Shown: piece by piece, positions 8,530-61,720 of the stretch
How positions within the stretch are numbered: position 1 is the stretch's first letter
Layout of the letters: every line of letters starts with the position of its first letter
Assembly (NCBI GenBank): GCA_039961635.1
Contig: JABRWB010000012.1
Location: 22,273-86,272, forward strand
DNA from: a bacterium
GTDB lineage: Bacteria > 4484-113 > JAGGVC01
Reading direction: 5' to 3'
DNA length: 64,000 bases
Position numbers and translations under genes: made by a program
Notes under the pieces: model-generated
Database searches by the model: none
Told to the model about the DNA's origin: nothing
What the model saw: the letters and a program-made list of their open reading frames with translations, nothing else

Positions 8530-8558
8530 TTGACCGCGTTTGCCGCGAGTGCTATACT
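8530..8558 (+). promoter_or_regulatory. Sigma70-like promoter: -35 TTGACC (8530-8535), 17-nt spacer, -10 TATACT (8553-8558), driving the cobalamin riboswitch and btu operon.
   Basis: Near-consensus hexamers with ideal spacing immediately upstream of the riboswitch. Confidence 0.5.
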
Positions 8559-8564
8559 CCTCCC

Positions 8565-8790
8565 GTTCCGTCGGCGGGAAGCCGGTGCAAATCCGGCACG
8601 GACCAGCCACTGTGAGGCGGACTCCCCGGCACTACGCCATTGCCTTCGGGCGAGAAGGCGCCGGGCGGGGTTGAAACCGAGTCAGGAGACCGGGCGGAAA
8701 CTTCAGGGCTTCTCGGAGTAAGCCGCGATGGCTTTCGGCTTTCGCTGTTTCGGCATTGCGATATCTGTATCGGGTGCGCGGCCCGTGCGG
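8565..8790 (+). promoter_or_regulatory. Cobalamin (B12) riboswitch.
   Basis: Conserved core GGGAAGCCGGTGCAAATCCGGCACGGACCAGCCACTGTGA (8575-8615), including the B12 box GCCACTG. Located in the leader of an ABC importer and TonB receptor operon. Confidence 0.75.
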
Positions 8791-10713: not shown

Positions 10714-11741
10714 CCTCCCCCCCTATTAAAGAGAACGCGAATTCCAGAGATGCGAGGCTTGTGCGGCTTCTTGCAATCGCGCTCACCCTTCTCGCACTCG
10801 GATTGGTTCTTTCGTTGGCCGCGGGAAAGGAGTATGTCAATCCGATATCGCTGTTTACGGGCGCATATTCCGATGACGCCCACCGTAAGGCGCTTTCGAC
10901 GATAGTATGGTCGCTAAGACTTCCCCGCGCGCTCGGCGCGGGGCTTATCGGAATGTCGCTCGCGCTTTCGGGGCTTTTGTTACAGGCGTATTTCCGCAAT
11001 CCGCTTGCCGATCCGTTCATCTTGGGAGTGTCCAGCGGCGCGGCGCTCGGCGCGGCCGTAAAAATTATTTTCTTGCCGAATATTCCGATTCCCCTTCCGG
11101 TGTTCGCGCTCGCGGGCGGGTTCGCGCTTGTGTCCGGAGTATGGCTTATCGCCAGAGGCGTACGGGGAGATGAGACCGTTACGCTGCTGCTTTCCGGAGT
11201 CGCCTTATCGCTTCTTGCGGGAAGCCTTTTGAGCGTGCTCGTTTTGTGGGGCAGGCCTGGCGAAGTGGGGCTTGTGATGCGTTGGCTGATGGGCTCGCTC
11301 GCGGGCGTCGGATATCGCGAGGTCGCGTGGCTTGCCGCGGGCGCGGTTGCGGGGCTTGCGATTTCGCTTGCGCTTTCGCGCGAACTCAATGCGATTCTTT
11401 TGGGCAAAACCGTCGCGCAGAGCATCGGCGTGGACGTGCGCGCGGTGCGGCTGTGGGTCGTGGGCGCGGCGACCGCGCTGGCCGCGCTGGCGGTTTCCGC
11501 CGCGGGAATCGTGGGTTTCGTCGGCCTGGTCGTACCGCATATCGCTCGGTTGATCGTGGGGGGGGGCGCGCGGCGGCTCGTTCCGGTGGCCGCCGCGATC
11601 GGAGCATCGGCGCTTGTGTGGTGCGACTTGGGCGCGCGCGCGGCTCTCCCCTCGGGCGAGCTGCCGATAGGAGCGGCGACCGCGATTATGGGCGTTCCGT
11701 TTTTTCTTTGGCTGATGCGCAGGGGGAGGTATTTGGGATGA
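10710..11741 (+). CDS. btuC: ABC transporter permease, FecCD/BtuC family.
   Basis: GTG 10710 overlaps the btuF stop (GTGA). FecCD motifs LGAGLIGMSLALSGLLLQAYFRNPLADPFILGVSSGAALGAAV. Multiple TM helices. The track start 10308 is an over-extension. Confidence 0.85.
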   Translation: MTSPPIKENANSRDARLVRLLAIALTLLALGLVLSLAAGKEYVNPISLFTGAYSDDAHRKALSTIVWSLRLPRALGAGLIGMSLALSGLLLQAYFRNPLADPFILGVSSGAALGAAVKIIFLPNIPIPLPVFALAGGFALVSGVWLIARGVRGDETVTLLLSGVALSLLAGSLLSVLVLWGRPGEVGLVMRWLMGSLAGVGYREVAWLAAGAVAGLAISLALSRELNAILLGKTVAQSIGVDVRAVRLWVVGAATALAALAVSAAGIVGFVGLVVPHIARLIVGGGARRLVPVAAAIGASALVWCDLGARAALPSGELPIGAATAIMGVPFFLWLMRRGRYLG

Positions 11742-13642
11742 TTTTCCGGCTGCTTGCCGCTATTTGGTTGATACTTTCGCTAAATGCCGCGTGGATCGGG
11801 GCGGCCGAATGCCAAGATGAAGGTTCGGGCGGAAATTCCGAATCTGCCGCCGAAGCCGATTCGGGGCGGGACGATTCCGAAGAAATCGAAGTCGGCGAAG
11901 TGGAGGTTGAAGGCGAGAAACCCGCGTCCGCGGAATCGCTGCCCGGCGAGGATTTTTTGTTGATTGACATCGAGGATTTCTTGATTCCCGGAGAGTCGCT
12001 CGGCGATGTCCTTGATACGCTCGGGGGCGTCGAAGTGCGCGGCCTGGGGGGGGGACTGGATATGACGACGTTTTCGATCCGCGGCGCGGGCGCGCACCAA
12101 ACCGATATTCTGCTTGAAGGCGCGCCGCTTTCGCCCGCGACCGGCGGCGTTTTCGACCTCTCGCTGTTGCCGGCTTGGTTTGTGCAATCCGCTCTCGTCA
12201 CCCGCGGCCCAGGCTCGATAGGCGGGAAAGCGCTCGCGGGAGAACTGGATTTGCGCCTGGCGAACGATACAGGAACTTCATTTTGCTCCGGCCGCGGCAG
12301 TTTCGGGACTTATTCCGCGATGATGAGGGGCGGATGGAACGCAGGAAATTCGAATTTTGTCATGGCCATTGGCTATGATTCTGCGGACGGCGATTTCACC
12401 TACGGGCGGCGCGACGGGAAAACCTACACGCGCTCGAACAACGAACGCGAGCGCGTTGCGGTCGCGCTGTCTTGGCAAACCAAAAACGCCGCGCGGGACG
12501 ATTCCGCATTTTTGCTGGCCGCCGACCGCTCCGGCGGTGTGCCGGGGCTGTCGGAATTTCCGACGCCTTCGGCGCACCAGGACGACACGCTTTTTCTCGC
12601 CGGTTTTTCCTCGACGGACAAATCGTTTGAAAAGGGCGAGTTGACGTGGACCGGCTACTCGCGCGTCCAACACACGGGCTTCGGCGATCCTTCGCCTTAT
12701 CTTGGAAACGCGGTGTATGCTGATCAATCCGAATACGCCGCCGGCGCCGCGGTATCGTTCAGGCGTCCGTCGGGGGGGGGTATCTTCGGTGCAAAAATAT
12801 CTATCGATGGAGCGGTTCTTTCCGACGATTCCTACGGGAATCCTGAACGGAGAACAATCGCCGCGACTCTATGGCGCGAGTTTTACGCCGGCAAGGCGGC
12901 TTTTTCCGCCGCACTGTCCGGGGAGGCGGCGAGCGACGGCCCCGTCGGCTGGCGCGGCAAACTGGGAATGGAGCGTAAACTGGGTGCGGGATTGTCATTA
13001 GCGGGCAGCGCGGCGCGCTCGTTCAGACGGCCCGATTTCGCGGAGCTTTATTATCCCGAATCGGGATTCATCGGCGGCAACCCGGAGCTTTTCCCGGAAA
13101 CCGGATACACGTTCGATTTCGGCCCGCGATTTCGAGGAAGCAAGTTGGATGCTTCACTTGTCGGATTTATCCACCGGTTTTCGGAATCGATCGAATTCGT
13201 GCCCGTATCCGCATACCGGCTTCGCGCGGAAAACACGGGGGGGGTGCGAAGCCGGGGCGTATCGCTGGACATACAAGCGGCTCCCGCGGACGGATGGAAG
13301 CTGGACGGCTCATTCACATTCCTTGACGCGGAATACCTGGACGGCGGACTTCCGCTTGCGGGGAGGTCTCCGCGCAAATGGAGTGTCGGCATATCGCGCG
13401 AGTCCGCCAACTGGCAAGTGTCGGCTTCATTCCTTCACCGCTCTTCCACGCCCGTCGACAGATTCGGCTCGCTGTATGTGGGCGCGGCCGGCGATTTGTC
13501 CGCGGCTCTTGTTTTCAGGCCCGATGATTCCTGGCGGATTTCGGTGTCGGGATTCAACCTGCTCGACGAAGATATCCGGGACAGCCTGGATTTCCCCCGG
13601 CCCGGCCGCTCGTTTTTTCTTTCGGTAAATCGCGAGGTGTAG
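11738..13642 (+). CDS. btuB: TonB-dependent outer-membrane receptor, BtuB-like.
   Basis: ATG 11738 overlaps the btuC stop (ATGA) with SD GGGGGAGG. Signal peptide MIFRLLAAIWLILSLNAAWIGAA. Plug-domain motifs VEVRGLGGGLDMTTFSIRGAGAHQTDILLEGAPLSP and VTRGPGSIGGKALAGELDL. The barrel C-terminus ends ...FFLSVNREV, not the usual aromatic residue. Confidence 0.8.
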   Translation: MIFRLLAAIWLILSLNAAWIGAAECQDEGSGGNSESAAEADSGRDDSEEIEVGEVEVEGEKPASAESLPGEDFLLIDIEDFLIPGESLGDVLDTLGGVEVRGLGGGLDMTTFSIRGAGAHQTDILLEGAPLSPATGGVFDLSLLPAWFVQSALVTRGPGSIGGKALAGELDLRLANDTGTSFCSGRGSFGTYSAMMRGGWNAGNSNFVMAIGYDSADGDFTYGRRDGKTYTRSNNERERVAVALSWQTKNAARDDSAFLLAADRSGGVPGLSEFPTPSAHQDDTLFLAGFSSTDKSFEKGELTWTGYSRVQHTGFGDPSPYLGNAVYADQSEYAAGAAVSFRRPSGGGIFGAKISIDGAVLSDDSYGNPERRTIAATLWREFYAGKAAFSAALSGEAASDGPVGWRGKLGMERKLGAGLSLAGSAARSFRRPDFAELYYPESGFIGGNPELFPETGYTFDFGPRFRGSKLDASLVGFIHRFSESIEFVPVSAYRLRAENTGGVRSRGVSLDIQAAPADGWKLDGSFTFLDAEYLDGGLPLAGRSPRKWSVGISRESANWQVSASFLHRSSTPVDRFGSLYVGAAGDLSAALVFRPDDSWRISVSGFNLLDEDIRDSLDFPRPGRSFFLSVNREV

Positions 13643-23016: not shown

Positions 23017-24552
23017 TCAAGCGTCCGGAATCGAAATGGATTTCGGTGTGCGTTCCACTTGCTCGAGTTCCAAAATATCGTCCTTGATTCCCGCATCAAG
23101 CTCTTTGAATTTCCTGGCCTGCGGCAAAACCCTGGATTCAAGGGAGCCTACCGCCCGGTTGTAAGATTCAACCGCCCCGTCAAGCCCCTTTTTGACTCCG
23201 TTGAAGTGCTCGGCCATAACTCTTATCCGGTTGTACAGCTCCTTGCCGAGATTGCTGATTTGCTTTGCGTTTTCCGCAATCTGCTCCTGGCGCCAGCCAA
23301 ACGCAACGGTTTTGAGCAGCCCCATAAGCATTGCAGGATTCGCAGGGAGAACCCGTTTGTCGAGGGCATATGAAATCAAATCAGGGTCAACCTTAAGCGC
23401 CGACATCAACAAATCCTCGAAAGGCAAAAACATGATTACGAAATCGGGGCTGCCCTGGACGAAATCCCAATATCCTTTTGACGCAAGCTGGTTGATATGG
23501 GTTTTCAAATTGGCCGCGTGCCTTTTCAGGCATTCGGCCTTCATCTCCTCGCTTTCGGCTTCGTAGGCTGAAATATATGCCTCCAGCGGGGCTTTTGAAT
23601 CGACAGGAATGCCGTGACCAGCCGGCATTTTAATAACCATATCGGGCCTGAACCTGGCCTCGCCCGCGGACACGGTGACCTGTTCCGCAAAGTCGCAGTA
23701 AGCCGTCATTCCCGCCAGTTCGACTACTCTTTTCAGCTGCATTTCGCCCCAGCTCCCCCACATGGTAGGTTTGCCGCGCAGCGCTGAAGTCAAACTGTCG
23801 GCCTTTGCGTGCAAATCTTTTTCGGCTTCTTGAAGGTTTCTGATTTGCTCGGTAAGAGTGGCGTACGCCTTGATTCTGCTTTCCTCGATCTCCCTGACAT
23901 GCGCCGAAAATTCCTCAAGTTTTTCTTTGAGCGGTTTTACCAGCGATTCCACTTTTTCCCTGCCCAATTCAAGCTCGTTTTTGGCTTGCTCGTTAAAGCT
24001 GCCCAGATTTTCCTTGGCAAGTTCCAGGAAACTTCTGGCGTTTCTGCTTAACGCGTCCGCCGACAAGGTTGAAAAAGCGTCTTTCAGTTGCTGTTTGGCC
24101 GCTTCCAAAAGCGCAAGTTTTTCTTCCGAATTTCTTTTTTCGTCGTCAAGCGCGGTACTCGCCGCGGCAAGGGCTTTTTCCAGGTTTTTGGTTAATTCGA
24201 TTTGTTCCGCGTACTTGGTTTTCCATTCGAGCGCTTCATTTCGAGAATGCTCCAAAAACGCCTCCTGGGACGATGCTCTTTCGCGCAGCTTCGAAATTTC
24301 TTCCGCGTCCGCTTTGGCGGCGGCCGTCAGTTCGTCTATTCTTTGAATACGTTCTTGGTTTTCATTGAGCGCCGACTGGAGCTCCGCGTCGCGGCTGCCA
24401 AGCCTTTCGTTCAGCAAAACGATTTCCGATTCCGCCCTGGAAACAGCATTCCTGACCGCCGCGTCAAGTTTTGCTTTGGAGCCGAGCCAGCATGAGCCAT
24501 ACCCTACGGCCAAACCGACGATCAGAAAAATCAAGTAAAATATCCAGTCCAT
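23017..24552 (-). CDS. rmuC: DNA recombination protein RmuC.
   Basis: N-terminal TM helix, long coiled-coil region, C-terminal RmuC nuclease-like domain (FRPDMVIKMPAGHGIPVDSKAPLEAY...FVIMFLPFEDLL). Confidence 0.85.
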   Translation of the reverse strand: MDWIFYLIFLIVGLAVGYGSCWLGSKAKLDAAVRNAVSRAESEIVLLNERLGSRDAELQSALNENQERIQRIDELTAAAKADAEEISKLRERASSQEAFLEHSRNEALEWKTKYAEQIELTKNLEKALAAASTALDDEKRNSEEKLALLEAAKQQLKDAFSTLSADALSRNARSFLELAKENLGSFNEQAKNELELGREKVESLVKPLKEKLEEFSAHVREIEESRIKAYATLTEQIRNLQEAEKDLHAKADSLTSALRGKPTMWGSWGEMQLKRVVELAGMTAYCDFAEQVTVSAGEARFRPDMVIKMPAGHGIPVDSKAPLEAYISAYEAESEEMKAECLKRHAANLKTHINQLASKGYWDFVQGSPDFVIMFLPFEDLLMSALKVDPDLISYALDKRVLPANPAMLMGLLKTVAFGWRQEQIAENAKQISNLGKELYNRIRVMAEHFNGVKKGLDGAVESYNRAVGSLESRVLPQARKFKELDAGIKDDILELEQVERTPKSISIPDA

Positions 24553-43526: not shown

Positions 43527-44516
43527 CTACCTGTTCACCGCGCCCATTGCGCGTTCTGGATAGCGCAGTCCCGCGGTAATTCCCGCTGGCACGGCCTCGT
43601 CAATCGCGGCAAGCTCGTCCGAAGAAAGCTCGACCTGAACGGCCGCGATGTTTTCGTCAAGTCTTTCGCGCCGCTTCGTGCCGGGGATCGGGACGATGTG
43701 CTCGCCGCGGTGAAGCAGCCATGCAAGGCAAAGCTGCGCGGGAGTCACGCCCTTCGATTCCGAGATCTCCGAAAGCATTTCAACCAGCGCCCGGTTTTTT
43801 TGGAAATTTTCGCCCTGGAAGCGAGGGTGGTTGCGGCGCGCATCGTCTTCCGCCAAATCGCTTTCCGTCTTGAACATTCCCGCAAGCATCCCGCGGCCCA
43901 GCGGGCTGTACGCGACGAAGCAGATTCCCAGCTCCCTGCACAAATCCAGATGACCGCCCGCCTCCGGGTCGCGCGTCCACAGGCTGTACTCGGTTTGCAG
44001 CGCCGCAATCGGATGCACCGCCTGTGCGCGCTTTATAGTTTCCGGCGCGGCCTCCGACAGTCCAAGGTAGCGGATTTTCCCCGCATTCTTGAGCTCCACC
44101 ATCGCGCCGACGGTTTCCTCTATCGGCGTCTCCGGGTCGACGCGGTGCTGGTAGTAAAGGTCTATGCAGTCCACGCCGAGCCTGGAAAGGCTCGCGTCGC
44201 ACGCCGCTTTGACGTATTCCGGCTTGCCGCACACGCCTCGCCAGTTGCCGTCCGCGTCACGCACGTTGCCGAATTTGGTGGCGAGGAACACTTCGCCCCG
44301 CCGCCCGGCTATCGCACGGCCGACAAGCTCTTCGTTTCTGCCGCAGCCGTAAACGTCGGCGGTGTCGAGGAAGTTGACTCCGCGGTCGAGCGCATGGTGG
44401 ATGGTGGCGACGCTCTCGGCGTCGTCGCGGCCCGAGTAGAAGTCGCTCATCCCCATGCAGCCAAGCCCAAGAGCGGAAACCCGCTCGCCGGTGTAACCTA
44501 ATGTGCGATATTTCAT
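43527..44516 (-). CDS. Aldo/keto reductase.
   Basis: [24 protein letters not shown]...[10 protein letters not shown]...LATKFG AKR signatures; 329 aa. Confidence 0.9.
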
Positions 44517-44575
44517 GACGATTTATTCTACTTCATCTCGATCCTGTCCACATAGACTCTAGCCGCCCAGAAACC

Positions 44576-47500
44576 TCATTCTGAATGTTGTTCCGTTTTC
44601 ACTACTTCCACGCGTTCCACCTCCACCGACAGGCTGCCGTGATTGTCCGCAACGCGGCCCAGGACCGCGGCCACCTCTCCCGGATGTCCCATCGCCACCG
44701 CGCGGTCGTACGCGTCCGGCCACATCACGCAGTTGATCACGCCCTCCGGCCGGTCGAGCGTGAGGAACCGCATCCGCCGGTCCTGCTTCGTCACGGTGCG
44801 CCGCGCCTCGATAACGTAGCCGCAGACGATGACGTATCTTCCGACGTAATCCGCAAGCTGCGTCTGGAGGATGACGGGGATGCCTGTTCCGTTCCTGGAA
44901 TTGTACGGGTGGGCTTTGTATCTGCCCGAATTCGAATATCCGGATATACCGCCGGTCTCCGGAGCGGCGTGCATTGAATTATCCCAATTGTTTTTGGATG
45001 CGCCCTTATGAGGAAATGCGGCGTGTTTCGGTTTTTCCCTCAATTTTTCCACCGCTGCTTCAAGCTCCTCACTCCATATCTCCACCGGGTGCGCCCGCGG
45101 CGAAAATCCTAGCGACCTCCACTCCGCCAGCATTATTTCCTTTTCAGATGGAGCGGGCAGCTCCGGTACCGCGATTTGCGAATAAGGTTTGTCGTCGAAC
45201 AATGCGACGGCCGCCGCAGAGGCGCACTGCGTGCGCCCGCCCGAATCGTAGGGGCGGGGTTTATCCCCGCCCGCAGATTGAGGCGGGGGCGGGTAAACCG
45301 CCCCCCTACAGTTTTCATTTGAAACCTGCGCCAGCCAGTGCAGTTCGTTGCGGTTGTATTTTTTGGGAGTGCGGGAGCTCGCTCCCACCCAAGGCACCGG
45401 CGAGCCGGTGCACTCCCCAAAGTCCAGTGCGCCGCAGTCCACAAGATGCCGAGCCTCGTCGTCGCCCGGCCGCACGCGCGACATGAAATCGGCCGCGTCG
45501 CGGAACGGCCGCGCCGCGCGCTCGGCCAGTATCCGCTCCCGCGTCGCGCCCGACAGCCCGAATATCGAGCGAAGCCCCGTCCGTATCGCGGGTATGTCGT
45601 TCACCCCCTCCGCTCCGGAAGCGTATTCCGCAACCCACCTGTCCTCGCTTTTGTTCACGTCCGGCGGGAGCACCGCCACCCCCGTCCGCCGCGCCTCGCT
45701 GACGTACGCCTGCGGCCCGCTCGTTATGTAATAAATTCCGCTCCCGTTCGAGAGCACCGCGGCCATGTACTCCGCCGGAAAATGCTCTTTCAGGTAGACC
45801 GCGAGCCCGCTCACGCGCGCGAACGCGGCCGCGTGCGCCTTGCAGAAACTGTACCCGGCGAAGCTGCGCAGCTCCTCCGCGAGCTGCTCCACCGCGTCGC
45901 GCGGAATCCCGCGCTCCGCGCACCGCCGCCTGAAATCCACGAGCGCCACGGCCATCAGCTCGCCCCCGCGCAGGCTGCGCTCCTTCCCGCTCATCGCGCG
46001 GCGGAACGTATCCGCCTCGGCCCAGCTCATCCCGGCGATATCGTGCGCGACCTGCATCACCTGCTCCTGAAAGACGAGCTTGCCGTACGTCGAGCGCAGC
46101 ACCGGCTCTAGCTCCGGCAGAAGGTAGTTCGCCTTCTCCAGCCCCAGCCTGCACCGGACGTACTGCTCCTTCGCTCCCGTTCCGGCCGCGCCGGGCCGGA
46201 TCACGCTCGTGTTTATCGTCGCCTCGGGATAGCTCTGGCATTTCGTTAGGAAATAAAGCTCGCGCATTCCCGGGCTTTCGATGTCGAAACAGCCGATCGT
46301 CCGCGCCTCGCGCATCCGCGCTTTCGTGCGCTCGTCGCCGTAAATCGCGTCCACGTCCTGCGGATTTATCTCCAGCCTTCCGTTCACATCGCGAATCGTC
46401 TGCTGCACGGTTTCGAGCGCCCGCAGCGAAAGGATGTCCACCTTCACAAGCCCCACGTCCTCGACACCCCACATGTCCAGCTGCGTGAGCATGATCCCGG
46501 ATTTCGCCGTCGGCTGCACCGGGAGGAACCGCGACAGCTTTCCCGGCGCGATTACTACGCCCCCGCAGTGCACCGAAAGATGCGTCGGAAATCCCGCGAT
46601 GCCTTTCGCGATGTCGATGATGCGCGCGTGCGGCTCGTCGCGAAGCTGGGCTACCGCGGGATTGGCGTCGAACTCCGGGTCGCCGATGTATTCGAGTTGC
46701 CGGCCGCGCAATCCCGACAGCATCTTCGTAATCCGCGTGATTTGCGCGTCGGAGTATCCGAGAACCTTCGCCACCTCGCGGTAGCCGCTTTTCGCTTGGA
46801 ACGTGACGTATGTGCAAACGTTCGCGACGCGGTCGCCGCCGTATTTGTTGTAGATGTATTCGTAGACGCGGTCGCGATCCTTCCACGAAAAATCTATGTC
46901 TATGTCGGGCAGGCTCTTGCGCTCCGGGTTAAGGAACCGCTCGAAGAAGAGGTCGTGCTTTATCGGGTCTACGTCGGTAATCCCCAGCGCGTACGCGACC
47001 AGGCTGTTCGCCGCGCTGCCGCGCCCTATCGTGAACATCCCCCGCGAGTGCGCCCAGGCCACGATATCGTGCAAAATCAGGAAATACGGAATGAAACGCC
47101 CGTCGGCGATTATCCTGATTTCGTATTCGAGCTGGTTCAAATAACGCGAGCCCGCGTCCGGAATCCGCGCTTTCAGCCCGCTTAAGCAAAGGTCGTGAAA
47201 ATACTGCCACTCGGACAGCCCGAACGGGAGCGGGAACTTGGGAAAGTGCCACTTGCCCAGGTTCGGCGCGAACGCGCAGCGCTCCGCGATCGCCGCTGCG
47301 TTGCGCACCGCGTCCGGATACCGGAAATACCGCGACCATATTTCGTTGGCGGATAGGATCTTCTGCTCCGGCTGCGCGACCTCGCCCTGCCGAAGCGCGG
47401 AAAGCGTGGTCAGCTCGCGCATCGCGCGCAGCACGTGGTGCCGCGTCATCTCGCCGCGCGTCCCGTTCGCGGAGTACGCCGCGGCGGTCGCCGCGAGCGG

Positions 47501-48055
47501 GATGCGGTTCGCGCGCGCGAAGTCCGCCAGCTTCGCCGCGCGCTTTCTGTCCGCGTCGAAATCGGTCAGGATTATTTCGGCGAAAATCCTACCGCGCCAT
47601 TCCTGCACCAAACCATCAAGCAATTCCGCCCACGGCGAAATCAGAATCAATCCATCCGGGTCGGCGCGGCGCAGCGCGGGAACAAGCTCGAAATCCGCGT
47701 CGCAATGCCTGGCAGTTATCAGACCGCAAAGCGTTTCGTATCCCTTTTCGTTCTCGCACAGGAGTACCGCGTACTTCCACCATCCCGCCGCGGGCGCGGG
47801 ATCGCGCGCGGGTTCGCCGGGCGCGGCGGGCGCGCGGGGCTCGGTCACCGCGGCGCCGATGATGGGGCGAATGCCCGCTCGGTTGCATTCCTCGACGAAA
47901 ACCGTCATCCCGTATAGCCCGTCTGTGTCGGTGAGCGCGAGCGCGCGCATTCCCAGCGCGGAGGCGCGGTCCACAAGCTCGCCGGGCACGTTCGCGCCCG
48001 CCTGCATCGAATAGCAGGAATGCGTATGAAGATGAGTGAAGTTGCCGGAGATCAT
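44576..48055 (-). CDS. dnaE2: Error-prone DNA polymerase III alpha-subunit paralog DnaE2 (ImuC).
   Basis: PHP domain start MISGNFTHLHTHSCYSMQAGA; polymerase core; C-terminal OB fold (...VIVCGYVIEARRTVTKQDRRMRFLTLDRPEGVINCVMWPD). Assigned dnaE2 because of the adjacent imuB-like gene. Contains an apparent in-frame insertion of about 60-70 aa (around 45250-45420) encoded by palindromic repeat elements. Confidence 0.85.
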   Translation of the reverse strand: MISGNFTHLHTHSCYSMQAGANVPGELVDRASALGMRALALTDTDGLYGMTVFVEECNRAGIRPIIGAAVTEPRAPAAPGEPARDPAPAAGWWKYAVLLCENEKGYETLCGLITARHCDADFELVPALRRADPDGLILISPWAELLDGLVQEWRGRIFAEIILTDFDADRKRAAKLADFARANRIPLAATAAAYSANGTRGEMTRHHVLRAMRELTTLSALRQGEVAQPEQKILSANEIWSRYFRYPDAVRNAAAIAERCAFAPNLGKWHFPKFPLPFGLSEWQYFHDLCLSGLKARIPDAGSRYLNQLEYEIRIIADGRFIPYFLILHDIVAWAHSRGMFTIGRGSAANSLVAYALGITDVDPIKHDLFFERFLNPERKSLPDIDIDFSWKDRDRVYEYIYNKYGGDRVANVCTYVTFQAKSGYREVAKVLGYSDAQITRITKMLSGLRGRQLEYIGDPEFDANPAVAQLRDEPHARIIDIAKGIAGFPTHLSVHCGGVVIAPGKLSRFLPVQPTAKSGIMLTQLDMWGVEDVGLVKVDILSLRALETVQQTIRDVNGRLEINPQDVDAIYGDERTKARMREARTIGCFDIESPGMRELYFLTKCQSYPEATINTSVIRPGAAGTGAKEQYVRCRLGLEKANYLLPELEPVLRSTYGKLVFQEQVMQVAHDIAGMSWAEADTFRRAMSGKERSLRGGELMAVALVDFRRRCAERGIPRDAVEQLAEELRSFAGYSFCKAHAAAFARVSGLAVYLKEHFPAEYMAAVLSNGSGIYYITSGPQAYVSEARRTGVAVLPPDVNKSEDRWVAEYASGAEGVNDIPAIRTGLRSIFGLSGATRERILAERAARPFRDAADFMSRVRPGDDEARHLVDCGALDFGECTGSPVPWVGASSRTPKKYNRNELHWLAQVSNENCRGAVYPPPPQSAGGDKPRPYDSGGRTQCASAAAVALFDDKPYSQIAVPELPAPSEKEIMLAEWRSLGFSPRAHPVEIWSEELEAAVEKLREKPKHAAFPHKGASKNNWDNSMHAAPETGGISGYSNSGRYKAHPYNSRNGTGIPVILQTQLADYVGRYVIVCGYVIEARRTVTKQDRRMRFLTLDRPEGVINCVMWPDAYDRAVAMGHPGEVAAVLGRVADNHGSLSVEVERVEVVKTEQHSE
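45248..45309. repeat. GC-rich imperfect nested palindrome inside the dnaE2 coding sequence.
   Basis: GTAGGGGCGGGGTTTA-TCCCCGCCCGC-AGATTGA-GGCGGGGGCGGG-TAAACCGCCCCCCTAC; the outer and inner arms are mutually complementary. Translated in dnaE2 as ...CRGAVYPPPPQSAGGDKPRPYDSGG... Confidence 0.6.
45365..45417. repeat. REP/MITE-like nested-palindrome element, copy 1 (inside dnaE2 CDS, in-frame).
   Basis: GGGAGTGC-GGGAGCtcGCTCCC-acccaag-GCACCGGCgaGCCGGTGC-ACTCCC: outer arms GGGAGTGC/GCACTCCC enclosing two internal hairpins. An inverted second copy lies at 48084-48137. Confidence 0.7.
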
Positions 48056-48059
48056 GTTT

Positions 48060-48137
48060 TTATGTGGGAGTGCACCTTTATGTGGGAGTGCACCGGCTTG
48101 CCGGTGCCTTTGTCGGGAGCAAGCTCCCGCACTCCCA
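48060..48137. repeat. REP/MITE-like nested-palindrome element, copy 2, with a partial tandem duplication of its 5' arm. Located between the dnaE2 start and the DUF72 start.
   Basis: TTATGTGGGAGTGCACC (48060-48076) then TTTATGTGGGAGTGCACC-GGCTTGCCGGTGC-CTTTGTC-GGGAGCaaGCTCCC-GCACTCCC (48077-48137). The reverse complement matches copy 1 at about 85 % identity. Confidence 0.7.
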
Positions 48138-48159
48138 AAATTCCTTTTATAATCCCACC

Positions 48160-49149
48160 GTGGAAATCCACATCGGCACGTCGGGCTGGAGCTACCCCGA
48201 ATGGATCGGGCCGTTCTACCCGCGGGGCACGGGCCGCGCGAAGCTGCTCGAAGCGTACTCGGCGGTGTTCGATGCGGCGGAGGTGAACTCCACCTACTAC
48301 AGGCTGCCGGGCGCGAAGACCGTCGAGGGATGGGTGGAAAAAACCGGCGGCAGGATGATTTTCGCCGTCAAGCTCCCGAAGGAGCTGACGCACGCGGGAA
48401 GCCCGGTCGCGGGCAGCGCGGACGCGGGATGGGAGGTGGACGCCGCGGTCGAGCGCGCGGCGGAGGCGGTACGGCAGTGCGTCGCGCCGCTCGCGGACGC
48501 GGGCGCGCTTGGATGCCTGCTCGCGCAATTTCCGTCCAGCTTCCACCGCAACCGCGAAAACTCGCGCTACCTGGGATGGCTGCGCGGCGCGCTGAAAGAA
48601 TTTCCGCTCGTCGTCGAATTCAGGAACGACGAATGGATACGCCCCGAAATTCTGAAATGGCTCGCGGATACCGGCACTGGATTCGCCTGCGTTGACCAGC
48701 CGCGGCTCGCGGGACTCGCGCCGCCGTTCTTTCTCGCGACGGGCGAAACGGGATACGTGCGGATGCACGGGCGCAACTCGGCGAACTGGTGGACGGGCGA
48801 CAACGTGACGCGGTACGAGTACGATTACAGCGACGCTGAATTGAATGAATGGGCGGATGTCGTCCGCCGCGCAATCCAGAATTTCGGAGGCGGTACCTCC
48901 CAGTCCCGCAAAGAAGCCGATTCGTCCGAAACGTCCGCGTCCGCGATCCCGCTCGACGCCGATGCGGAAGTGTTTTTGAAGGAACGCAAGGTTTTCGACT
49001 GGGACAGAACACTCGGCGTCGAGTCCTCGATGACCGAAGCCCGCGCGATGCTCAAAAAGATTTTCTTCTTCTACAACAACCACTCGCACGCGTACGCCGC
49101 CAAGAACGCGTTGCGGTTCAGGGAAATGATGATGGAGGAATCGCGTTAG
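48160..49149 (+). CDS. DUF72 (YecE-like) family protein.
   Basis: GTG 48160 (VEIHIGTSGWSYPEWIGPFYP matches the DUF72 N-terminal signature IGTSGWxYxxW). A -10 TATAAT at 48148-48153 is only 6 nt upstream, suggesting a leaderless transcript. The track start 48064 would read through the repeat element. Confidence 0.8.
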   Translation: MEIHIGTSGWSYPEWIGPFYPRGTGRAKLLEAYSAVFDAAEVNSTYYRLPGAKTVEGWVEKTGGRMIFAVKLPKELTHAGSPVAGSADAGWEVDAAVERAAEAVRQCVAPLADAGALGCLLAQFPSSFHRNRENSRYLGWLRGALKEFPLVVEFRNDEWIRPEILKWLADTGTGFACVDQPRLAGLAPPFFLATGETGYVRMHGRNSANWWTGDNVTRYEYDYSDAELNEWADVVRRAIQNFGGGTSQSRKEADSSETSASAIPLDADAEVFLKERKVFDWDRTLGVESSMTEARAMLKKIFFFYNNHSHAYAAKNALRFREMMMEESR

Positions 49150-49157
49150 TCGTTTGC

Positions 49158-50189
49158 TCATGCCCCCACCCCCGCGAGCTCGCGGCCGGTTTTTATCGCT
49201 TCGAATCCGTACTTCGCGCGCACCCGGTTGACGCTGCGCTCAAGCGCTTCGCCCTTCACCCGCGACGCGGGAACGAACAGCCTGTCCTGCACGACGAACG
49301 GATAGAACCGCGACGCGGTTATCTCGACCGCGGCCACGTTCACGCGCCGAGTGTGCGCCCGCTCCGCGAGCTCCCGCGACGCGCACAGCATGTCGCACGC
49401 GTACGGCGTAGGCTCGGCCAAAGTCGCGCCCGCGTACCGCCTGCCGCCGTCTATGTAATGCAGCGCGAGGTCCAGCCTGCGCACCGCGCGCATCGCGCCC
49501 TCCCTGTACAGCGCGAACGAAAGCCGGTCGCAGACCACTTCCAGATACGGCGCAAGCCCGTCCGGCGACGAGACGCCGGGCGCGGGGACGGGCATCCGCT
49601 CGACAATCGCCTGCGGCCGCTCGGCCAGCTTCGGCGGAGAGACGTCCCGGCCGCGGCACTGGTGGAACGCTATATGGGCGAACCTGCGGCCGACGAGCAA
49701 ATCCAGGGCGCCGCGCTCAAGCCGCGCCACATCGCCAAGCTGGCGCAATCCGATCCGATGGAGCCGCTCCAAAGCTGGCTCCGGCAAATAAAGCGCGGGG
49801 AGAGGAAGTGGGGCGACCGCTTCGGATTCCGCGCCCGCGGGAACGAGCAGACCGCCGCGGCATTCAGCGCGCCGCCATTTGACGACCAAGCGCGCGACGG
49901 TCGCGTTGGGAGCGAGGCACATCGCGGCCGAGTCCGCGCCGCGCGCGCACGCGTGCTCCAGCGCAACCAGCGCCGCGCGCCCGGCCTCGAACACGTCCGG
50001 ATACACACGTCCGCAGCCGGTGAAGTCGGCCAGCCAGTCGCACCGCGGACGCGGCTCGACCGCGGGCGCGAACCGCCAAAGAAGCGTGCGTCCCGCATCC
50101 GGCCAGAGCGGCGGCCCGTCCATCCCGGCGCCGATCGAATACCAGGCGTACGATCGGGCGGCCGCCTCCGGGTTATCAATACTGAACAC
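49158..50189 (-). CDS. imuB: ImuB-like Y-family polymerase paralog (catalytically degenerate), accessory to DnaE2.
   Basis: Y-family HhH/thumb-like region LPLPALYLPEPALERLHRIGLRQLGDVARLERGALDLLVGRRFAHIAFHQCRGRDVSP resembles the DinB LPVxKLWGVG...LGIxTxGDL segment. The N-terminal region lacks catalytic acidic motifs. Shorter (343 aa) than typical ImuB. Confidence 0.55.
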   Translation of the reverse strand: MFSIDNPEAAARSYAWYSIGAGMDGPPLWPDAGRTLLWRFAPAVEPRPRCDWLADFTGCGRVYPDVFEAGRAALVALEHACARGADSAAMCLAPNATVARLVVKWRRAECRGGLLVPAGAESEAVAPLPLPALYLPEPALERLHRIGLRQLGDVARLERGALDLLVGRRFAHIAFHQCRGRDVSPPKLAERPQAIVERMPVPAPGVSSPDGLAPYLEVVCDRLSFALYREGAMRAVRRLDLALHYIDGGRRYAGATLAEPTPYACDMLCASRELAERAHTRRVNVAAVEITASRFYPFVVQDRLFVPASRVKGEALERSVNRVRAKYGFEAIKTGRELAGVGA

Positions 50190-50234
50190 AAGTATAGTAT
50201 ACTTGTTTTCAGCGAAGAATGCAAGCGGAGGGAG

Positions 50235-50840
50235 TTAGCCGTTGTCCCAGCGCGGCGGCTTGCCGCCCGCGCCGGATAAATCCGATAGATTAACGCGCGT
50301 GACCGGATATGGAACCGGACGGACGTATTCGAATTGGAGCTGGTCCACGTTTTCGCCTTGAACGAAAAGCGAAGACTTGAAAACGCCGACTTGGTTGAAT
50401 CCCAGTTTCGGATAAAGCGGGATGAGCGGATCCCAGCCCGCGGCCGAAGATATCGTCACGCGATCCATACGACAATCGCCGGTCAGGTAGTCACGCGCGA
50501 GCGTCAGCGCTTCGAGCCAAGCTTCTTCGTCGAGCGGAACCGCCGGGTCGGGGTACGGCTTGAGCCGAGCCGCGTTGCGCTGGGCCTGGACTCCCGGAAT
50601 GTGGATGTAACCCAGAGCTTTCATCGTTTCCGCTTCGAAAACGATGAACCACGGGCCTTTCGGCAACTGCCAGTCGTGAGACGGAGCTTCGAATTTGCCT
50701 TCCTTCAATTGTTTTTCGATGTCCGCGGTGCGCACCAATTCCCACTTCTCGCGCCAGACGCACCGGTTGTACAGCCCTGCGACGATTTCCGCGTCCGGCG
50801 ACGCCGCGCCGCGGAGCATTACCTTTTCACCTTTAAGCAT
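50235..50840 (-). CDS. GNAT-family N-acetyltransferase (RimJ/RimL-like).
   Basis: Acetyltransf_3-like pattern (LRGAASPDAEIVAGLYN...FIVFEAETMKALGYIHI...). Start trimmed to an internal ATG to reduce overlap with the upstream GNAT gene; the track start is 50861. Confidence 0.5.
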   Translation of the reverse strand: MLKGEKVMLRGAASPDAEIVAGLYNRCVWREKWELVRTADIEKQLKEGKFEAPSHDWQLPKGPWFIVFEAETMKALGYIHIPGVQAQRNAARLKPYPDPAVPLDEEAWLEALTLARDYLTGDCRMDRVTISSAAGWDPLIPLYPKLGFNQVGVFKSSLFVQGENVDQLQFEYVRPVPYPVTRVNLSDLSGAGGKPPRWDNG

Positions 50841-52377: not shown

Positions 52378-52800
52378 GGAAACAATATCTACAAGGAGCC
52401 GAGGCTTCAGCCTCGGCGGAACGCAATGGAAACCGTGGCAAGTGCAAGGCAAGCCAATCCGAGGAGCGCCGCCCCCAATGGCTGCAAATCAAATGCCTCC
52501 ATATTGGCAGCTATGCAATTCCGCGAACCAAATGCCGGAATCCGGGTCTATAATGACGGCGATGGGGATTTTCCAGCGGGACGAATACGGGCCGATCATC
52601 TCGCCGCGCCGCCGCGCTCCGATTAACGGGTATTCCGGTACCCGAATGTGGATGCGCGCAAATTCCGCGCCAGTGGTACCTTACAAAAGCGCGTAATAGG
52701 GACTCAAGCGGGGTATAATACCAGCGAGCGGTCACCTTCCCGGAGGTTGGTGCAACTTGTCGGGAACACGCCGATTGGTTTTGCACATTGGAGAAAGGAT

Positions 52801-54550: not shown

Positions 54551-57500
54551 ATGGAGTTTGAAATGGCGAAAAGGAATCTGATTGCTGTTGTCGTGCTCGT
54601 GCTTGCGTTTGCGATGTACGCCTGTGGAGGCGGCAGGAAGCTAAGCTCTCCCGCTCCTATTCCGTCCGGCCCAGTCTCCGACCAACAGGCAGGCGGCTCC
54701 GACAATACGGTTGGCTCGCTCTCGGATGCGCTGAAGGCAATCGTGGATTACGAAAACTCGCAGACCGCGATGCAGGCCGCGCGGGATGCCGCCCGCAAGC
54801 CGAGCGCCGTGCCGAATACGCTTCTTGGCGACGAGGAGTGGATGAAAGGCCCGACGATGAACAACTATGAAGAGGATTTCGATTCGCACACCCTTACGGC
54901 GATAAGCGATTCCTCCGATATCGAAGACGTCGGATTTTTGGGCTTCGCCGTGTACAGGTTCGACGGGCATGCCGCCGATACCGATCTTTCCCTCGCCGCA
55001 GAAATAGAGCCTGCGCCGGGAAGCTCCTTTTACATTTACGTGGTGAGCTGGGATGGACCGCCAAGATGGATAAGCTTCGGTCCGTTTTTTGAAAATCCAG
55101 GTCCGCCGGATTGGCCGATCGAATTCGCGTTCGACGCGGTTTCGCCAACCGGCAGCATTTACGTCGGGATTGCGGTTTACGCCGAAAGCGAAGCGACAAC
55201 CTGGTCGTTTACTGTGGATTCCACCGGAGGTGCATCAAGTCCTCCATTCGCGGATATTCAGGCCAATCCAAAGTCGGGAGATCCGCCGCTAAATGTTTCG
55301 TTTGATGCCGGAAACAGCTACGACCCTGACGGAGGGGCGATAACGTTATTCGAGTGGGATTTCGAAGGCGACGGCGTTTACGACGAATCTGGCGCATCAT
55401 GGACGGCTTCCCACATTTACAACGCGCCGGGCGTTTATGCCGCAACTGTTCGAGTAACGGACGACGAAGGGGAAAAGGACACAGCGCACACGATTGTGCG
55501 CGCGGGAGCGAATCCGTATTACGAAACGGAGGACAACGACGACCTTCCGCAGGCGAACGCGCTGCCTGCGTTCGACTTCTCGGGCAACACGGTGTCCGGC
55601 TCCATCGGCAACGACGATCCCGAAGGCAATTACCCGGGCTACGACGGGGACAGTTCGGATGCGTTTTCTTTTGCCATAACCGAGGCCAGCACGGTTTCGC
55701 TGACAATTCTGTATGACTGGGAAACCTGCGGGCTTGGATTCGACGTGTACGACGAAATGTGGAATTATTACGGCGGCGGCAATGGCGACAACGGTATCGC
55801 ATTCGCCGAAGTGGGATTGACAAATCCAGGCACTTACTACGTTTGGTTATACAGTTGGTGGGGATACAGCGATTACATAATCACCGGCTCGCGCGTGTCG
55901 GGGGTCAAACCGGTTGCAGATATCGTGGCTGAACCTTCGTCCGGCGAGGCACCGCTTGACGTTCAATTGGACGCCGGTGCAAGTTATGATCCCGACGGCG
56001 GCTCCATCGTCAAGTACGAATGGGATTTCGAAGGCGACGGAATTTATGACGAAGATACCGGCGGTACGCCCATAACCAACCACATTTATGCGGACGATGG
56101 ATTTTATCTTGCGACCGTCCGGGTAACTGACGACGAAGGCGCAGCCGCAACCGACTCCGCTCTTGTATATGTTGGAACTCCGTTTTACGAAGTTGAAGAC
56201 AACGAGGAGTTTTACCAGGCAACACCGCTTCCGGCATTTCCTTTCCCGGCTCCGCTTGTGAACGGCAGCGTAGGTTCAAGTTTGGATTATCCGGGTTACG
56301 ACGGCGATTACTACGATGTATTTTCGTTTGCAACAACAGAGGCAGGCGCTGTTGAATTCCTGCTTACATACGGCACCGACTATGGTACGGCATATTTCGA
56401 CATTTACGACGGGGATTGGAATTATTACGGCGGCTCTTGGGACGGCGACGGAGACGGTTACCTGGTGGTGTATTTAGACAATCCCAATACCTACTATATT
56501 TCGGTTGGGATGAACACGGGCGAATGGACCGAATACGAATTGGAAGGGGCGTTTTATCCGGGCCAGCTTCCAGTCGCCGACATAGTCGCAGCGCCCGCAT
56601 ACGGCGATCCGCCGCTCGACGTGGATTTTGACGCGGCCGCAAGCTACGATCCCGACGGAGGAGCCATCGTCAAATACGAATGGGATTTCGACGGCGACGG
56701 GGTTTGGGACGAGGACACGGGGGGCAGTCCGGTTGCTTCGCACCAATACACGTCCGAAGGTGTGTATGTCGCGGCGGTCCGCGTGACCGACGACGAGGGC
56801 GCGCCGGATATAGACACCAAGGTGATAGTTGTCGGCAATCCGCAGTATTTCGAAATCGAGGATAACGATTGGATGGATGAAGCCAATCCGTTGCCCGATT
56901 TGCCGTTCCCGTCGCCCTTGGTCAACGGCAGCATAGGCTGGGGCAGCGGCTATGATGGTTACGACGGCGATACAGAAGACTTCTTTAGTTTCGAAACCGA
57001 TGAATCCGGAAGCATTAATCTCTTTATCGAATTCGAGCAAATGACCGCACCGAACACCGAAGCCTACGTAATCAACTCAAATGAAGACTGGATCGCAGGA
57101 GATTACGACAGGGACGGCGACGGAGACATAGAGCTTCAGGCGTTCCTGCCGGATCCGGGCAAATACTATATAGCGGTTTTCAACAGTGGTTTTGAGGAAT
57201 TCTCTGATTACGAAATAACGGCGGAATTAATCCCAGGCGATCCGCCCGTAGCGGATTTCACAGCCGATCCGATCTGGGGCTCGCCTCCGCTGGCGGTGGA
57301 TTTTGACGCTTCCGCAAGCTACGACCCGGACGGAGGCCCGATTGTCAATTACATGTGGGATTACGACGGGGACGGCATTTACGATGAAGAATCGCCCGGC
57401 GATCCGACGATATCCCATTCGTACGATGACGCGGGGATTTATAACGCGACGCTCAAAGTGATTGACGAGGAGGGCGCGTATACCTCGGCCAGCATTAGAA

Positions 57501-57883
57501 TAATCGTCGGGCCGTTTTACGAAACCGAGGACAACGACGACTCGACGGAAGCGGACGCGCTTCCGGCATTCCCGTTCTATTCGGATACGGTGACCGGCAA
57601 TTTGGGAGCCGGCGGATACAACGGAGACAACGAGGATTGGTTTGAATTCGAGATTACAGATCCCGGCGAAATTTACTTTTACATCGAATACAACTTCAAT
57701 CTCGCCAACCTGCAGGTGGAGATTTTCGACTCATCGCTAAACCAAATCTACTCTTCCTATATGGACGGCGATTACGAGGAGATAGATTACTGGCTGGATT
57801 CACCCGGCACTTATTACCTGCGCTGTTTCGTCAACTCCGGTCAGACGAACTACGTGATGTCCGGCGAATTCTGGAGCTGGTAG
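54551..57883 (+). CDS. Giant lipoprotein with four tandem PKD plus pre-peptidase C-terminal (PPC) domain pairs.
   Basis: Lipobox VVLVLAFAMYACGGG. Four PKD units (PPLNVSFDAGNSYDPDGGAITLFEWDFEGDGVYDE...; APLDVQLDAGASYDPDGGSIVKYEWDFEGDGIYDE; PPLDVDFDAAASYDPDGGAIVKYEWDFDGDGVWDE; PPLAVDFDASASYDPDGGPIVNYMWDYDGDGIYDE), each followed by a PPC-like unit (YYETEDNDD...A..LPAF.F...V.G..G...Y.GYDGD..D.FSF). Repeat period is about 660-670 bp. Confidence 0.75.
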   Translation: MEFEMAKRNLIAVVVLVLAFAMYACGGGRKLSSPAPIPSGPVSDQQAGGSDNTVGSLSDALKAIVDYENSQTAMQAARDAARKPSAVPNTLLGDEEWMKGPTMNNYEEDFDSHTLTAISDSSDIEDVGFLGFAVYRFDGHAADTDLSLAAEIEPAPGSSFYIYVVSWDGPPRWISFGPFFENPGPPDWPIEFAFDAVSPTGSIYVGIAVYAESEATTWSFTVDSTGGASSPPFADIQANPKSGDPPLNVSFDAGNSYDPDGGAITLFEWDFEGDGVYDESGASWTASHIYNAPGVYAATVRVTDDEGEKDTAHTIVRAGANPYYETEDNDDLPQANALPAFDFSGNTVSGSIGNDDPEGNYPGYDGDSSDAFSFAITEASTVSLTILYDWETCGLGFDVYDEMWNYYGGGNGDNGIAFAEVGLTNPGTYYVWLYSWWGYSDYIITGSRVSGVKPVADIVAEPSSGEAPLDVQLDAGASYDPDGGSIVKYEWDFEGDGIYDEDTGGTPITNHIYADDGFYLATVRVTDDEGAAATDSALVYVGTPFYEVEDNEEFYQATPLPAFPFPAPLVNGSVGSSLDYPGYDGDYYDVFSFATTEAGAVEFLLTYGTDYGTAYFDIYDGDWNYYGGSWDGDGDGYLVVYLDNPNTYYISVGMNTGEWTEYELEGAFYPGQLPVADIVAAPAYGDPPLDVDFDAAASYDPDGGAIVKYEWDFDGDGVWDEDTGGSPVASHQYTSEGVYVAAVRVTDDEGAPDIDTKVIVVGNPQYFEIEDNDWMDEANPLPDLPFPSPLVNGSIGWGSGYDGYDGDTEDFFSFETDESGSINLFIEFEQMTAPNTEAYVINSNEDWIAGDYDRDGDGDIELQAFLPDPGKYYIAVFNSGFEEFSDYEITAELIPGDPPVADFTADPIWGSPPLAVDFDASASYDPDGGPIVNYMWDYDGDGIYDEESPGDPTISHSYDDAGIYNATLKVIDEEGAYTSASIRIIVGPFYETEDNDDSTEADALPAFPFYSDTVTGNLGAGGYNGDNEDWFEFEITDPGEIYFYIEYNFNLANLQVEIFDSSLNQIYSSYMDGDYEEIDYWLDSPGTYYLRCFVNSGQTNYVMSGEFWSW

Positions 57884-61361: not shown

Positions 61362-61375
61362 TGGTACAAACACAA

Positions 61376-61720
61376 TGGAGGTGGGGGGAATCGAACCCCC
61401 GTCCGAACGGGCACCCGGGACGGCGTCTACGGCGGTAGTCTGCGGATTAATCTTAACGCCCTTCGGAAGCCGCAAACGACACCTCCGGGCGGGCAGCCCT
61501 TAATCTTTCGCGGATGCCGGGCGTTCTCCGCGGCATCCCCTGGATCTGGCCGCGCATCCGAGCCCCAGGGGCCCGGCGCGGTGCGCGGTCGTCGCTATGT
61601 TAAGCGGCGAGAGCGAAATCGCGGTTGGCGATTATGTTTTGCTGGGGTTGTTGACCCGGCGTCCAGCCGCCGGGCGTCGCAGCCGATCGTGCATCCCATC
61701 CGTCGAATCCATACACCCCC
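61376..61720 (-). ncRNA. ssrA: Transfer-messenger RNA (tmRNA, ssrA).
   Basis: Minus-strand 5' end GGGGGTGTATGGATTCGACGG... (complement of 61720 downward). Tag ORF ...GCCAACCGCGATTTCGCTCTCGCCGCTTAA = ANRDFALAA* (around 61601-61630). 3' tRNA-like end GGACGGGGGTTCGATTCCCCCCACCTCCA with encoded CCA (complement of 61376-61378). Confidence 0.85.

Follow-up and report, generated by a model that had tools for sequence, protein, structure and literature searches.

The 64,000-nt stretch of bacterial DNA analysed here (contig JABRWB010000012.1, positions 22,273 to 86,272 of the forward strand; referred to as the window, whose numbering is used for all coordinates unless a contig is named) carries a gene for a dnaE2-type polymerase and, in divergent orientation to it, a gene for a DUF72 protein, with a short control region between the two that is occupied by a direct repeat and a nested palindrome. 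An earlier description of this spacer, made from its letters alone (hereafter the original prediction), had seen in it a repetitive extragenic palindromic (REP)-like element with a duplicated arm, and had proposed the region as a lineage-specific SOS operator or as a recombination hotspot. The central features of the locus are the following:

44576 to 48055, minus strand: gene for a dnaE2-type polymerase of 1159 amino acids, starting at ATG 48055, with REP-derived inserts in the linker between its HhH domain and OB fold
48160 to 49149, plus strand: DUF72 gene (329 amino acids; Pfam E 3e-52), starting at GTG 48160 and not at the upstream GTG codons within the repeat
48059 to 48076, plus strand: first copy of the 18-nt repeat, TTTATGTGGGAGTGCACC, which duplicates the junction between the flank and the 5' arm of the element
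48077 to 48094, plus strand: second copy of the 18-nt repeat, which holds the 5' arm that closes the element
48084 to 48140, plus strand: 57-nt REPIN-like element with a Y-shaped fold, in which the outer stem GGGAGTGC/GCACTCCC surrounds hairpins 1 and 2

Measured from ATG 48055 on the minus strand to GTG 48160 on the plus strand, the divergent spacer comprises 104 nt (48056–48159) rather than the 105 nt first counted, and it is indeed filled by the repeat and the palindrome. The direct repeat is likewise present, as an exact tandem array of the unit TTTATGTGGGAGTGCACC (48059–48094) in which both copies measure 18 nt, in place of the 17 + 18 nt originally read, and the first copy is made up of 6 flanking nucleotides, the 9-nt arm and just 3 nt from hairpin 1. 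The nested palindrome takes the form of a Y and spans 48083–48137: the outer arms TGGGAGTGC (48083–48091) and GCACTCCCA (48129–48137) enclose hairpin 1 (GCACCGGC-tt-GCCGGTGC, 48090–48107) and hairpin 2 (GGGAGC-aa-GCTCCC, 48115–48128), with the 3' arm able to pair alternatively with the first repeat copy (48065–48073). Folding of the 67-nt core gave −32.5 kcal/mol as RNA (z −4.6) and −18.5 kcal/mol as DNA (z −4.2), with none of 200 shuffled sequences folding as well in either case, and z-scores lay between −4.2 and −4.9 across the tests: the Y-shaped fold of the core, whether as RNA or as single-stranded DNA, is far more stable than that of shuffled controls. No Rfam family was found at the element, either in a scan of the whole window at gathering thresholds or in a scan of 44400–48400 at E ≤ 10.

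The second copy, the repeat family and its transposase

With each half of the palindrome as query, the window yielded exactly one further copy of the element (45361–45417), which lies within dnaE2 itself, in the same linker as a repeat of a separate type:

45361 to 45417, minus strand: second copy of the 57-nt element, in the sense orientation of dnaE2 and in frame, with the translation …GECTGSPVPWVGASSRTPKK…
45248 to 45309, minus strand: GTAG-tagged REP dimer of a separate family, in frame, in the DnaE2 linker

Inverted relative to each other and 2.67 kb apart, the two 57-nt copies match at 52 of 57 positions (91%), with a longest identical run of 18 nt. Four of the five differences fall in loops or linker and the remaining one turns a C-G pair into U-G, with no pair broken. 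The HhH domain extends to residue 879 and the OB fold begins with residue 1075, and the variable linker that joins them holds the intragenic copy; homologous proteins have a shorter segment at this site, and without its inserts the protein would measure about 1040 amino acids. The GTAG dimer consists of GTAGGGGCGGGGTTTATCCCCGCCCGC and an inverted partner, with 27-nt arms that are 81% complementary, and is translated as …CRGAVYPPPPQSAGGDKPRPY…. Two repeat types, the 57-nt element and the GTAG dimer, are found in the DnaE2 linker, with the control region carrying a third insertion. In the nearest relative, the segment aligned to the intragenic copy (contig L019, about 12660–12700) contains ACCGGCTCGGCGTTCC, which resembles hairpin 1 and has no outer arms; this segment may represent an old copy in decay, an independent event at this position or a chance similarity.

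Outside the window, the 3' half of the element (GGGAGCNNGCTCCCGCACTCCC) was detected in at least 120 metagenome contigs with unrelated flanks (at least 120 loci; this and the other figures on the family rest on the matches listed), and it is identical to the consensus of this metagenome family. Up to five pattern matches fall on a single contig (L114) among the matches listed. Elements of the family are bounded by GGAGTGC…GCACTCC and range in size from 28 nt to over 200 nt: the shortest is a perfect 28-nt monomer, GGAGTGC-GGGAGCAAGCTCCC-GCACTCC, and the longer ones (100–230 nt) consist of two inverted ends of ~28 nt, GGAGTGC-hairpin-GCTTTTC … GAAAAGC-hairpin-GCACTCC, around variable sequence. 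In the window element the left end reads GGGAGTGC-hairpin-GCCTTT and the right end hairpin-GCACTCCC, two inverted units making up one element, which is, by its sequence, a minimal member of the family with the two ends abutting without cargo. The variants of the hairpin stem are compensatory across 169 units (GGCGGC/GCCGCC, GGGAGC/GCTCCC, GGTAGC/GCTACC, CGAAGC/GCTTCG and, in the window, ACCGGC/GCCGGT).

One of the metagenome contigs, L041, carries an open reading frame (ORF; 1276–1920, 214 amino acids) that exhibits HUH and catalytic-tyrosine motifs and has family elements on both sides. Its product matched the NCBIfam model for the REP-associated tyrosine transposase (RAYT; NF047646) with an E-value of 4e-19 and 68.8 bits, below the curated cutoff of 80, and Pfam Y1_Tnp with 23.1 bits, at the cutoff (23). 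Homologues of 50–96% identity are present in five more element-bearing contigs (L108, L044, L056, L034 and L070); the transposase gene thus adjoins elements in six contigs, with flanking on two sides read in one of them (L041). From this transposase ORF flanked by elements, together with the homologues in element-bearing contigs, it follows that the family has the defining sequence architecture of REP/REPIN-RAYT or 'TIRtron' systems, and the description of the spacer element as REP-like in the original prediction was correct: it belongs to a dispersed repeat family that is associated with RAYT transposases. On L041 (1186–1321), and likewise on L044, L056 and L108, a conserved TTGACAATTAC… block is seen in the element directly before the RAYT-like ORF, and because this block precedes the ORF, the left element may supply the transposase promoter.

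Scanning reference-genome contigs with the 5' half gave 18 loci, 16 of which are single matches in unrelated sequence, many of these being one conserved coding stretch; related repeats were found only in two contigs of metagenome-assembled genomes (MAGs), L008 and L014. These contain repeated units of 134–188 nt (L008 5473–5649, Ignavibacteria; L014 4137–4346, Hydrogenedentota) that open with the window module GGAGTGCACCGGCTTGCCGGTGC and then diverge, and in L014 three hairpins are held within a single GGAGTGCA/TGCACTCC stem. A literature search using sequence strings of the element retrieved no relevant report.

Probable insertion into the divergent spacer and alternative explanations

The closest relative of the polymerase (P0002, 70–75% identical) was found on two Logan contigs, L019 and L020, which show the gene order of the window: a 343-aa Y-family-like gene, an inverted DUF72 gene and dnaE. 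The divergent spacer of this relative is 32 nt long and does not contain the element. Alignment of the two spacers is clean on both sides, with the block ATTATAAAA kept, and leaves ~70 nt of the window spacer, namely the element and the 18-nt repeat, without a counterpart. On the DUF72 strand the relative reads TATAAT-TGTGCT-GTG, with the 6-nt spacing of the window, and on the dnaE strand its leader is short and places GAGG ~10 nt ahead of the ATG, a sequence that is gone in the window. The promoter features that bear on both genes are:

48148 to 48153, plus strand: −10 box TATAAT of the DUF72 gene, 6 nt before GTG 48160, kept in the relative and fitting a leaderless start
48146 to 48154, minus strand: candidate −10 box of dnaE2, the conserved block GATTATAAA (AATTATAAA in the relative), overlapping the DUF72 −10 box

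The position of the TATAAT relative to the DUF72 GTG agrees with the original reading of the sequence. A consensus scan of the spacers of the window and of the relative detected neither a full sigma-70 promoter (−35 plus −10) nor a terminator. Formation of a dnaE2 promoter by the duplication was considered and rejected, as no TANNNT hexamer lies 5–8 nt from the ATG.

We infer that a non-autonomous element of the REP/REPIN type entered an ancestral spacer of ~32 nt at a point between the dnaE2 start and the overlapping −10 boxes that both genes share, and that 18 nt across the junction of flank and arm would then have been duplicated in tandem, most simply via replication slippage at the hairpin. 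The make-up of the first copy (flank, arm and the 3 nt of hairpin 1) agrees with a duplication of the junction and not with a second insertion as the source of the repeat. The Logan assemblies L021 and L022, obtained independently for the same organism, agree with the window at every position of the spacer, duplication included; because the two agree, there is no sign of ongoing instability, and the suggestion of a recombination hotspot found no evidence in this region.

For the DUF72 gene, the −10 box and the leaderless GTG would have remained untouched by the insertion, with only the −35 position now lying in the element; given that −10 box and start are intact and that conservation with the relative does not extend to the −35 position, expression of DUF72 is probably little affected. 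If dnaE2 transcription still depended on the conserved GATTAT/TATAAA box (on the strand opposite to the DUF72 −10 box, with which it overlaps), the transcript would acquire a leader of ~90 nt, with a stable Y structure, without the GAGG Shine-Dalgarno sequence of the relative and with its AUG in an A-rich stretch free of pairing. When the complete leader is folded, either duplicate of the 3' arm can serve as partner of the 5' arm, and the A-rich surroundings of the AUG remain open. The element would then represent a selfish insertion with an effect on dnaE2 expression that is at most modulatory, probably dampening or stabilising: we expect translation or the stability of the mRNA to be modestly affected and no switch to result.

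We therefore consider it likely that the spacer holds a mobile REP/REPIN-like insertion together with an 18-nt duplication of its junction and is not a repressor binding site, with the insertion being selfish and at most modulatory. Several observations weigh against this interpretation. The ACCGGC variant of the hairpin was seen only in the window and two MAG contigs; no RAYT gene was found in the 64-kb window; only two copies of the element are present in these 64 kb, both at dnaE2, and with copies counted within the window a high copy number in the source genome is unproven. Furthermore, the ends of the element are GGAGTGC/GCACTCC, the classical GTAG/CGTC tag of REPs being absent, and the comparison of spacers involves one close relative only, so that gain is not formally separable from precise loss.

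The competing proposal, in which the direct repeat ATGTGGGAGTGCAC would serve dnaE2 and DUF72 as a LexA (SOS) operator specific to the lineage, starts from the fact that dnaE2 cassettes are usually under LexA control; a distant homologue of the polymerase does lie in a lexA-IMS-dnaE cassette, operators can be tandem direct repeats, and, as originally noted, no canonical LexA box is visible in the spacer. To our knowledge, the spacer repeat itself resembles no LexA box. However, ATGTGGGAGTGCAC is absent from the 32-nt orthologous spacer of the nearest relative (L019/L020), and at 0–1 mismatch it is represented in the 64-kb window by the two repeat copies only. Matches with 2–3 mismatches occur at the level of chance (5 seen, 2.9 expected) and none of them lies at the imuB-like or rmuC promoters, whilst a version with three mismatches, in the second copy of the element, falls within dnaE2 coding sequence. 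The repeat unit, moreover, combines the arm of a dispersed mobile element with 6 flanking nucleotides. Genes for lexA, recA and uvrA were not found in the 64-kb window, and tblastn using the LexA protein from the distant cassette did not reveal lexA there; the search for the motif at other SOS genes that had been suggested could be made within the window at the imuB-like promoter, the sole nearby repair-gene promoter, which lacks ATGTGGGAGTGCAC. The spacer of the relative lacks the motif, as do the imuB-like promoter and the remaining sequence of the 64 kb, and a version of it lies in coding sequence; we regard a role as SOS operator as most improbable.

Three further explanations concern the structure instead of the repeat. 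The insertion could have acquired a function as cis-regulatory RNA of the dnaE2 leader, in which the 3' arm, present twice on the mRNA (GCACUCCCA), would provide alternative closing helices, or the Y structure would act as a stabiliser of the mRNA or as a brake on translation. In keeping with this, the leader structure is stable, the whole-leader fold pairs the 5' arm with the distal and not the proximal duplicated arm, dnaE2 in the window has neither a Shine-Dalgarno sequence nor a leaderless −10 box where the relative has GAGG, and REPs are described in PMC3733652 as modulators at the RNA level; yet neither of the alternative helices touches the AUG region, the element is not conserved beyond this organism when compared with the relative, and no Rfam match was obtained at E up to 10, which makes us regard co-option as unlikely. 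The two inverted 57-nt copies could also function as a pair, either in a DNA inversion switch that breaks and restores dnaE2 or by long-range pairing within the dnaE2 mRNA, given their inverted orientation 2.67 kb apart and their complementarity on the mRNA (duplex −118 kcal/mol, self-folds −31 and −34 kcal/mol). Against this, L021 and L022 are collinear with the window across the spacer and have dnaE2 intact, the longest identical run of 18 nt is poor for homologous recombination, no recombinase gene is located nearby, and local hairpins would form first, with ribosomes traversing the second copy; pairing of the copies in either form is thus highly improbable. The more specific idea that the inverted copies jointly switch the error-prone polymerase, by mRNA pairing over 57 nt or by inversion of the first 880 codons, as a case of REPs being recruited to repair genes instead of reaching them by chance, is very unlikely in our view; such recruitment is the subject of speculation by Di Nocera et al. 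(PMC3733652). Finally, a chance palindrome or an assembly artefact, for which nothing other than the small size of the element speaks, is practically out of the question: independent assemblies are identical, 0 of 200 shuffles fold as well, and long sub-patterns of the element, none of which is expected in the window by chance, were seen in two copies. The mobile insertion with its duplicated junction is our preferred account of the spacer, and its main value lies in a correction, a plausible-looking 'SOS operator' being the end of a mobile repeat.

Neighbouring genes, gene calls and predicted leaderless starts

Beyond the DUF72 gene lies a further gene that bears on the identity of the cassette:

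49158 to 50189, minus strand: ImuB-like Y-family gene without the catalytic N-terminal region, with its own TATACT-6 nt-GTG start and without the spacer motif

The 343-aa ImuB-like product aligns to Pol IV with the catalytic N-terminal region missing, and its gene is separated from dnaE2 by the inverted DUF72 gene. Read from ATG 48055, the N-terminal HxH motif of the polymerase aligns with homologues, and the C-terminus of the protein is an OB fold without a further domain. Its scores against NCBIfam are below the cutoffs of both DnaE1 (651 bits, cutoff 1002) and the error-prone type (582 bits, cutoff 939), and the distant homologue mentioned above resides in a cassette of lexA, a small ORF, IMS and dnaE. 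In spite of the NCBIfam cutoffs, the label 'dnaE2' of the original prediction appears reasonable, as the gene adjoins an inactive ImuB-like Y-family gene, has this distant lexA-IMS-dnaE homologue and ends at the OB fold. No ImuA was recognised at the locus; the 208-aa ORF upstream of the imuB-like gene was considered for this role and rejected, as it gave no Pfam or PDB match and no counterpart was called there in the relative.

The order of imuB-like gene, inverted DUF72 gene and dnaE2 is common to both organisms. The imuB-like and DUF72 genes converge, with stop codons 8 nt apart in the window (49149–49158) and 20 nt apart in the relative (L019 9003–9024). On the minus strand the imuB-like gene has no terminator behind it, so that its transcript may continue through DUF72 in antisense and reach dnaE2; a weak terminator-like hairpin is present on the plus strand (49172–49185). 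A perfect 9+1+9 palindrome, ACAAGTATA-c-TATACTTGT (50188–50206), occurs once in the window, across the GTG start codon and TATACT −10 box of the imuB-like gene. It has no conserved equivalent in the relative, but as a candidate operator it is preferable to the dnaE2 spacer repeat. Two GC-rich hairpins that resemble REP units without GGAGTGC arms are also found in this region, one (CCGGCGCGGGCGGCAAGCCGCCGCGCTGG, about 50246–50278, minus strand) at the 3' end of the 208-aa ORF and the other (GCCGAGGCTTCAGCCTCGGC, 52398–52417) further upstream.

On contig L021, both automated gene starts at the spacer look misplaced. The DUF72 call (8841–9908, corresponding to window 48082–49149) begins at a GTG inside the element and yields 355 amino acids, of which 26 are spurious, and the dnaE2 call (10001–13414, window 44576–47989) begins at codon 23, giving a protein of 1137 amino acids from which the conserved HxH motif is removed. 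The automated calls at this locus were apparently misled by the element.

The leaderless DUF72 mRNA that had been predicted is in agreement with our comparison, since the TATAAT-6 nt-GTG arrangement is kept in the 70–75% identical relative and recurs at the imuB-like gene and at several others. The start of the imuB-like gene reads TATACT-6 nt-GTG in both organisms, and within the window such a layout of TATAAT-like hexamer and start was found at 4 of 13 TATAAT sites, plus TATACT, TAAAAT and TAGAAT sites, ahead of long ORFs. These ORFs start 6–8 nt past the hexamer without a Shine-Dalgarno sequence, at GTG, TTG or ATG and often at GTG or TTG, the positions being 3164(+), 22955(−), 24632(+), 27862(−), 36344(−), 44516(−), 48160(+), 50189(−) and 60538(−); other genes of the window have clear GGAG/GAGG sites. 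This pattern suggests that leaderless mRNAs with non-AUG starts are frequent in this bacterium. Its EF-G is 100% identical only to a protein labelled 'MAG: bacterium', and the named relatives, at ~47% identity, belong to KSB1, Zixibacteria and Calditrichota. The window also contains a gene for transfer-messenger RNA (61373–61720, minus strand; tag ANRDFALAA), a cobalamin riboswitch (8547–8712, plus strand), an RmuC gene (23017–24552, minus strand) and a gene for a large PKD-domain protein (54551–57883, plus strand) with internal repeats at 55.3–57.6 kb.

Comparison with known repeat and operator systems

With the LexA boxes of imuA-imuB-dnaE2 cassettes, the window motif shares only its position upstream of dnaE2; it is not conserved in the orthologue and has no second occurrence at another repair-gene promoter. 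The closer parallels are with mobile palindromic repeats. REP/REPIN elements are mobilised by RAYT transposases (Bertels and Rainey 2011, PMC3116915; Di Nocera et al. 2013, PMC3733652), and the GGAGTGC-bounded family resembles them in that its units are short, form hairpins and share a conserved head, are arranged as inverted doublets with a larger common fold and are scattered over unrelated contexts, and in that repeats flank a single gene for an HUH tyrosine transposase. It differs from them in its head, which is GGAGTGC instead of the GTAG or CGTC of classical REPs, and the window element differs further in that its abutting hairpins are enclosed by one outer stem in a Y shape, whereas the classical REPIN forms one long hairpin. 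In addition, PMC3733652 describes RAYT-like 'TIRYT' genes, among them a distinct acidobacterial group, flanked by families of partly palindromic terminal inverted repeats (TIRs); the metagenome elements, with inverted ends of ~28 nt (GGAGTGC-hairpin-GCTTTTC) around variable cargo, resemble such TIRs or TIRtrons in their layout. A REPIN/TIR family bounded by GGAGTGC, with its own tyrosine transposase and common in metagenomes, is hereby documented.

The locus also provides an example of an insertion that would have remodelled a compact divergent promoter, replacing a short leader with a Shine-Dalgarno sequence by a long structured one. Intragenic REPs in DnaE2 genes have already been described, and according to PMC3733652 intragenic REPs and Rickettsia palindromic elements (RPE), including those in DnaE2/DnaE, likewise form in-frame repeats in the linkers of DNA replication and repair proteins. 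The window differs from these in that it presents a different repeat family, an unclassified host and a further copy of the element in the control region of the same gene. To the reported tendency of palindromic repeats to occur in DnaE2 and other repair genes it adds a case in which the control region and the coding linker of one gene have both been hit.

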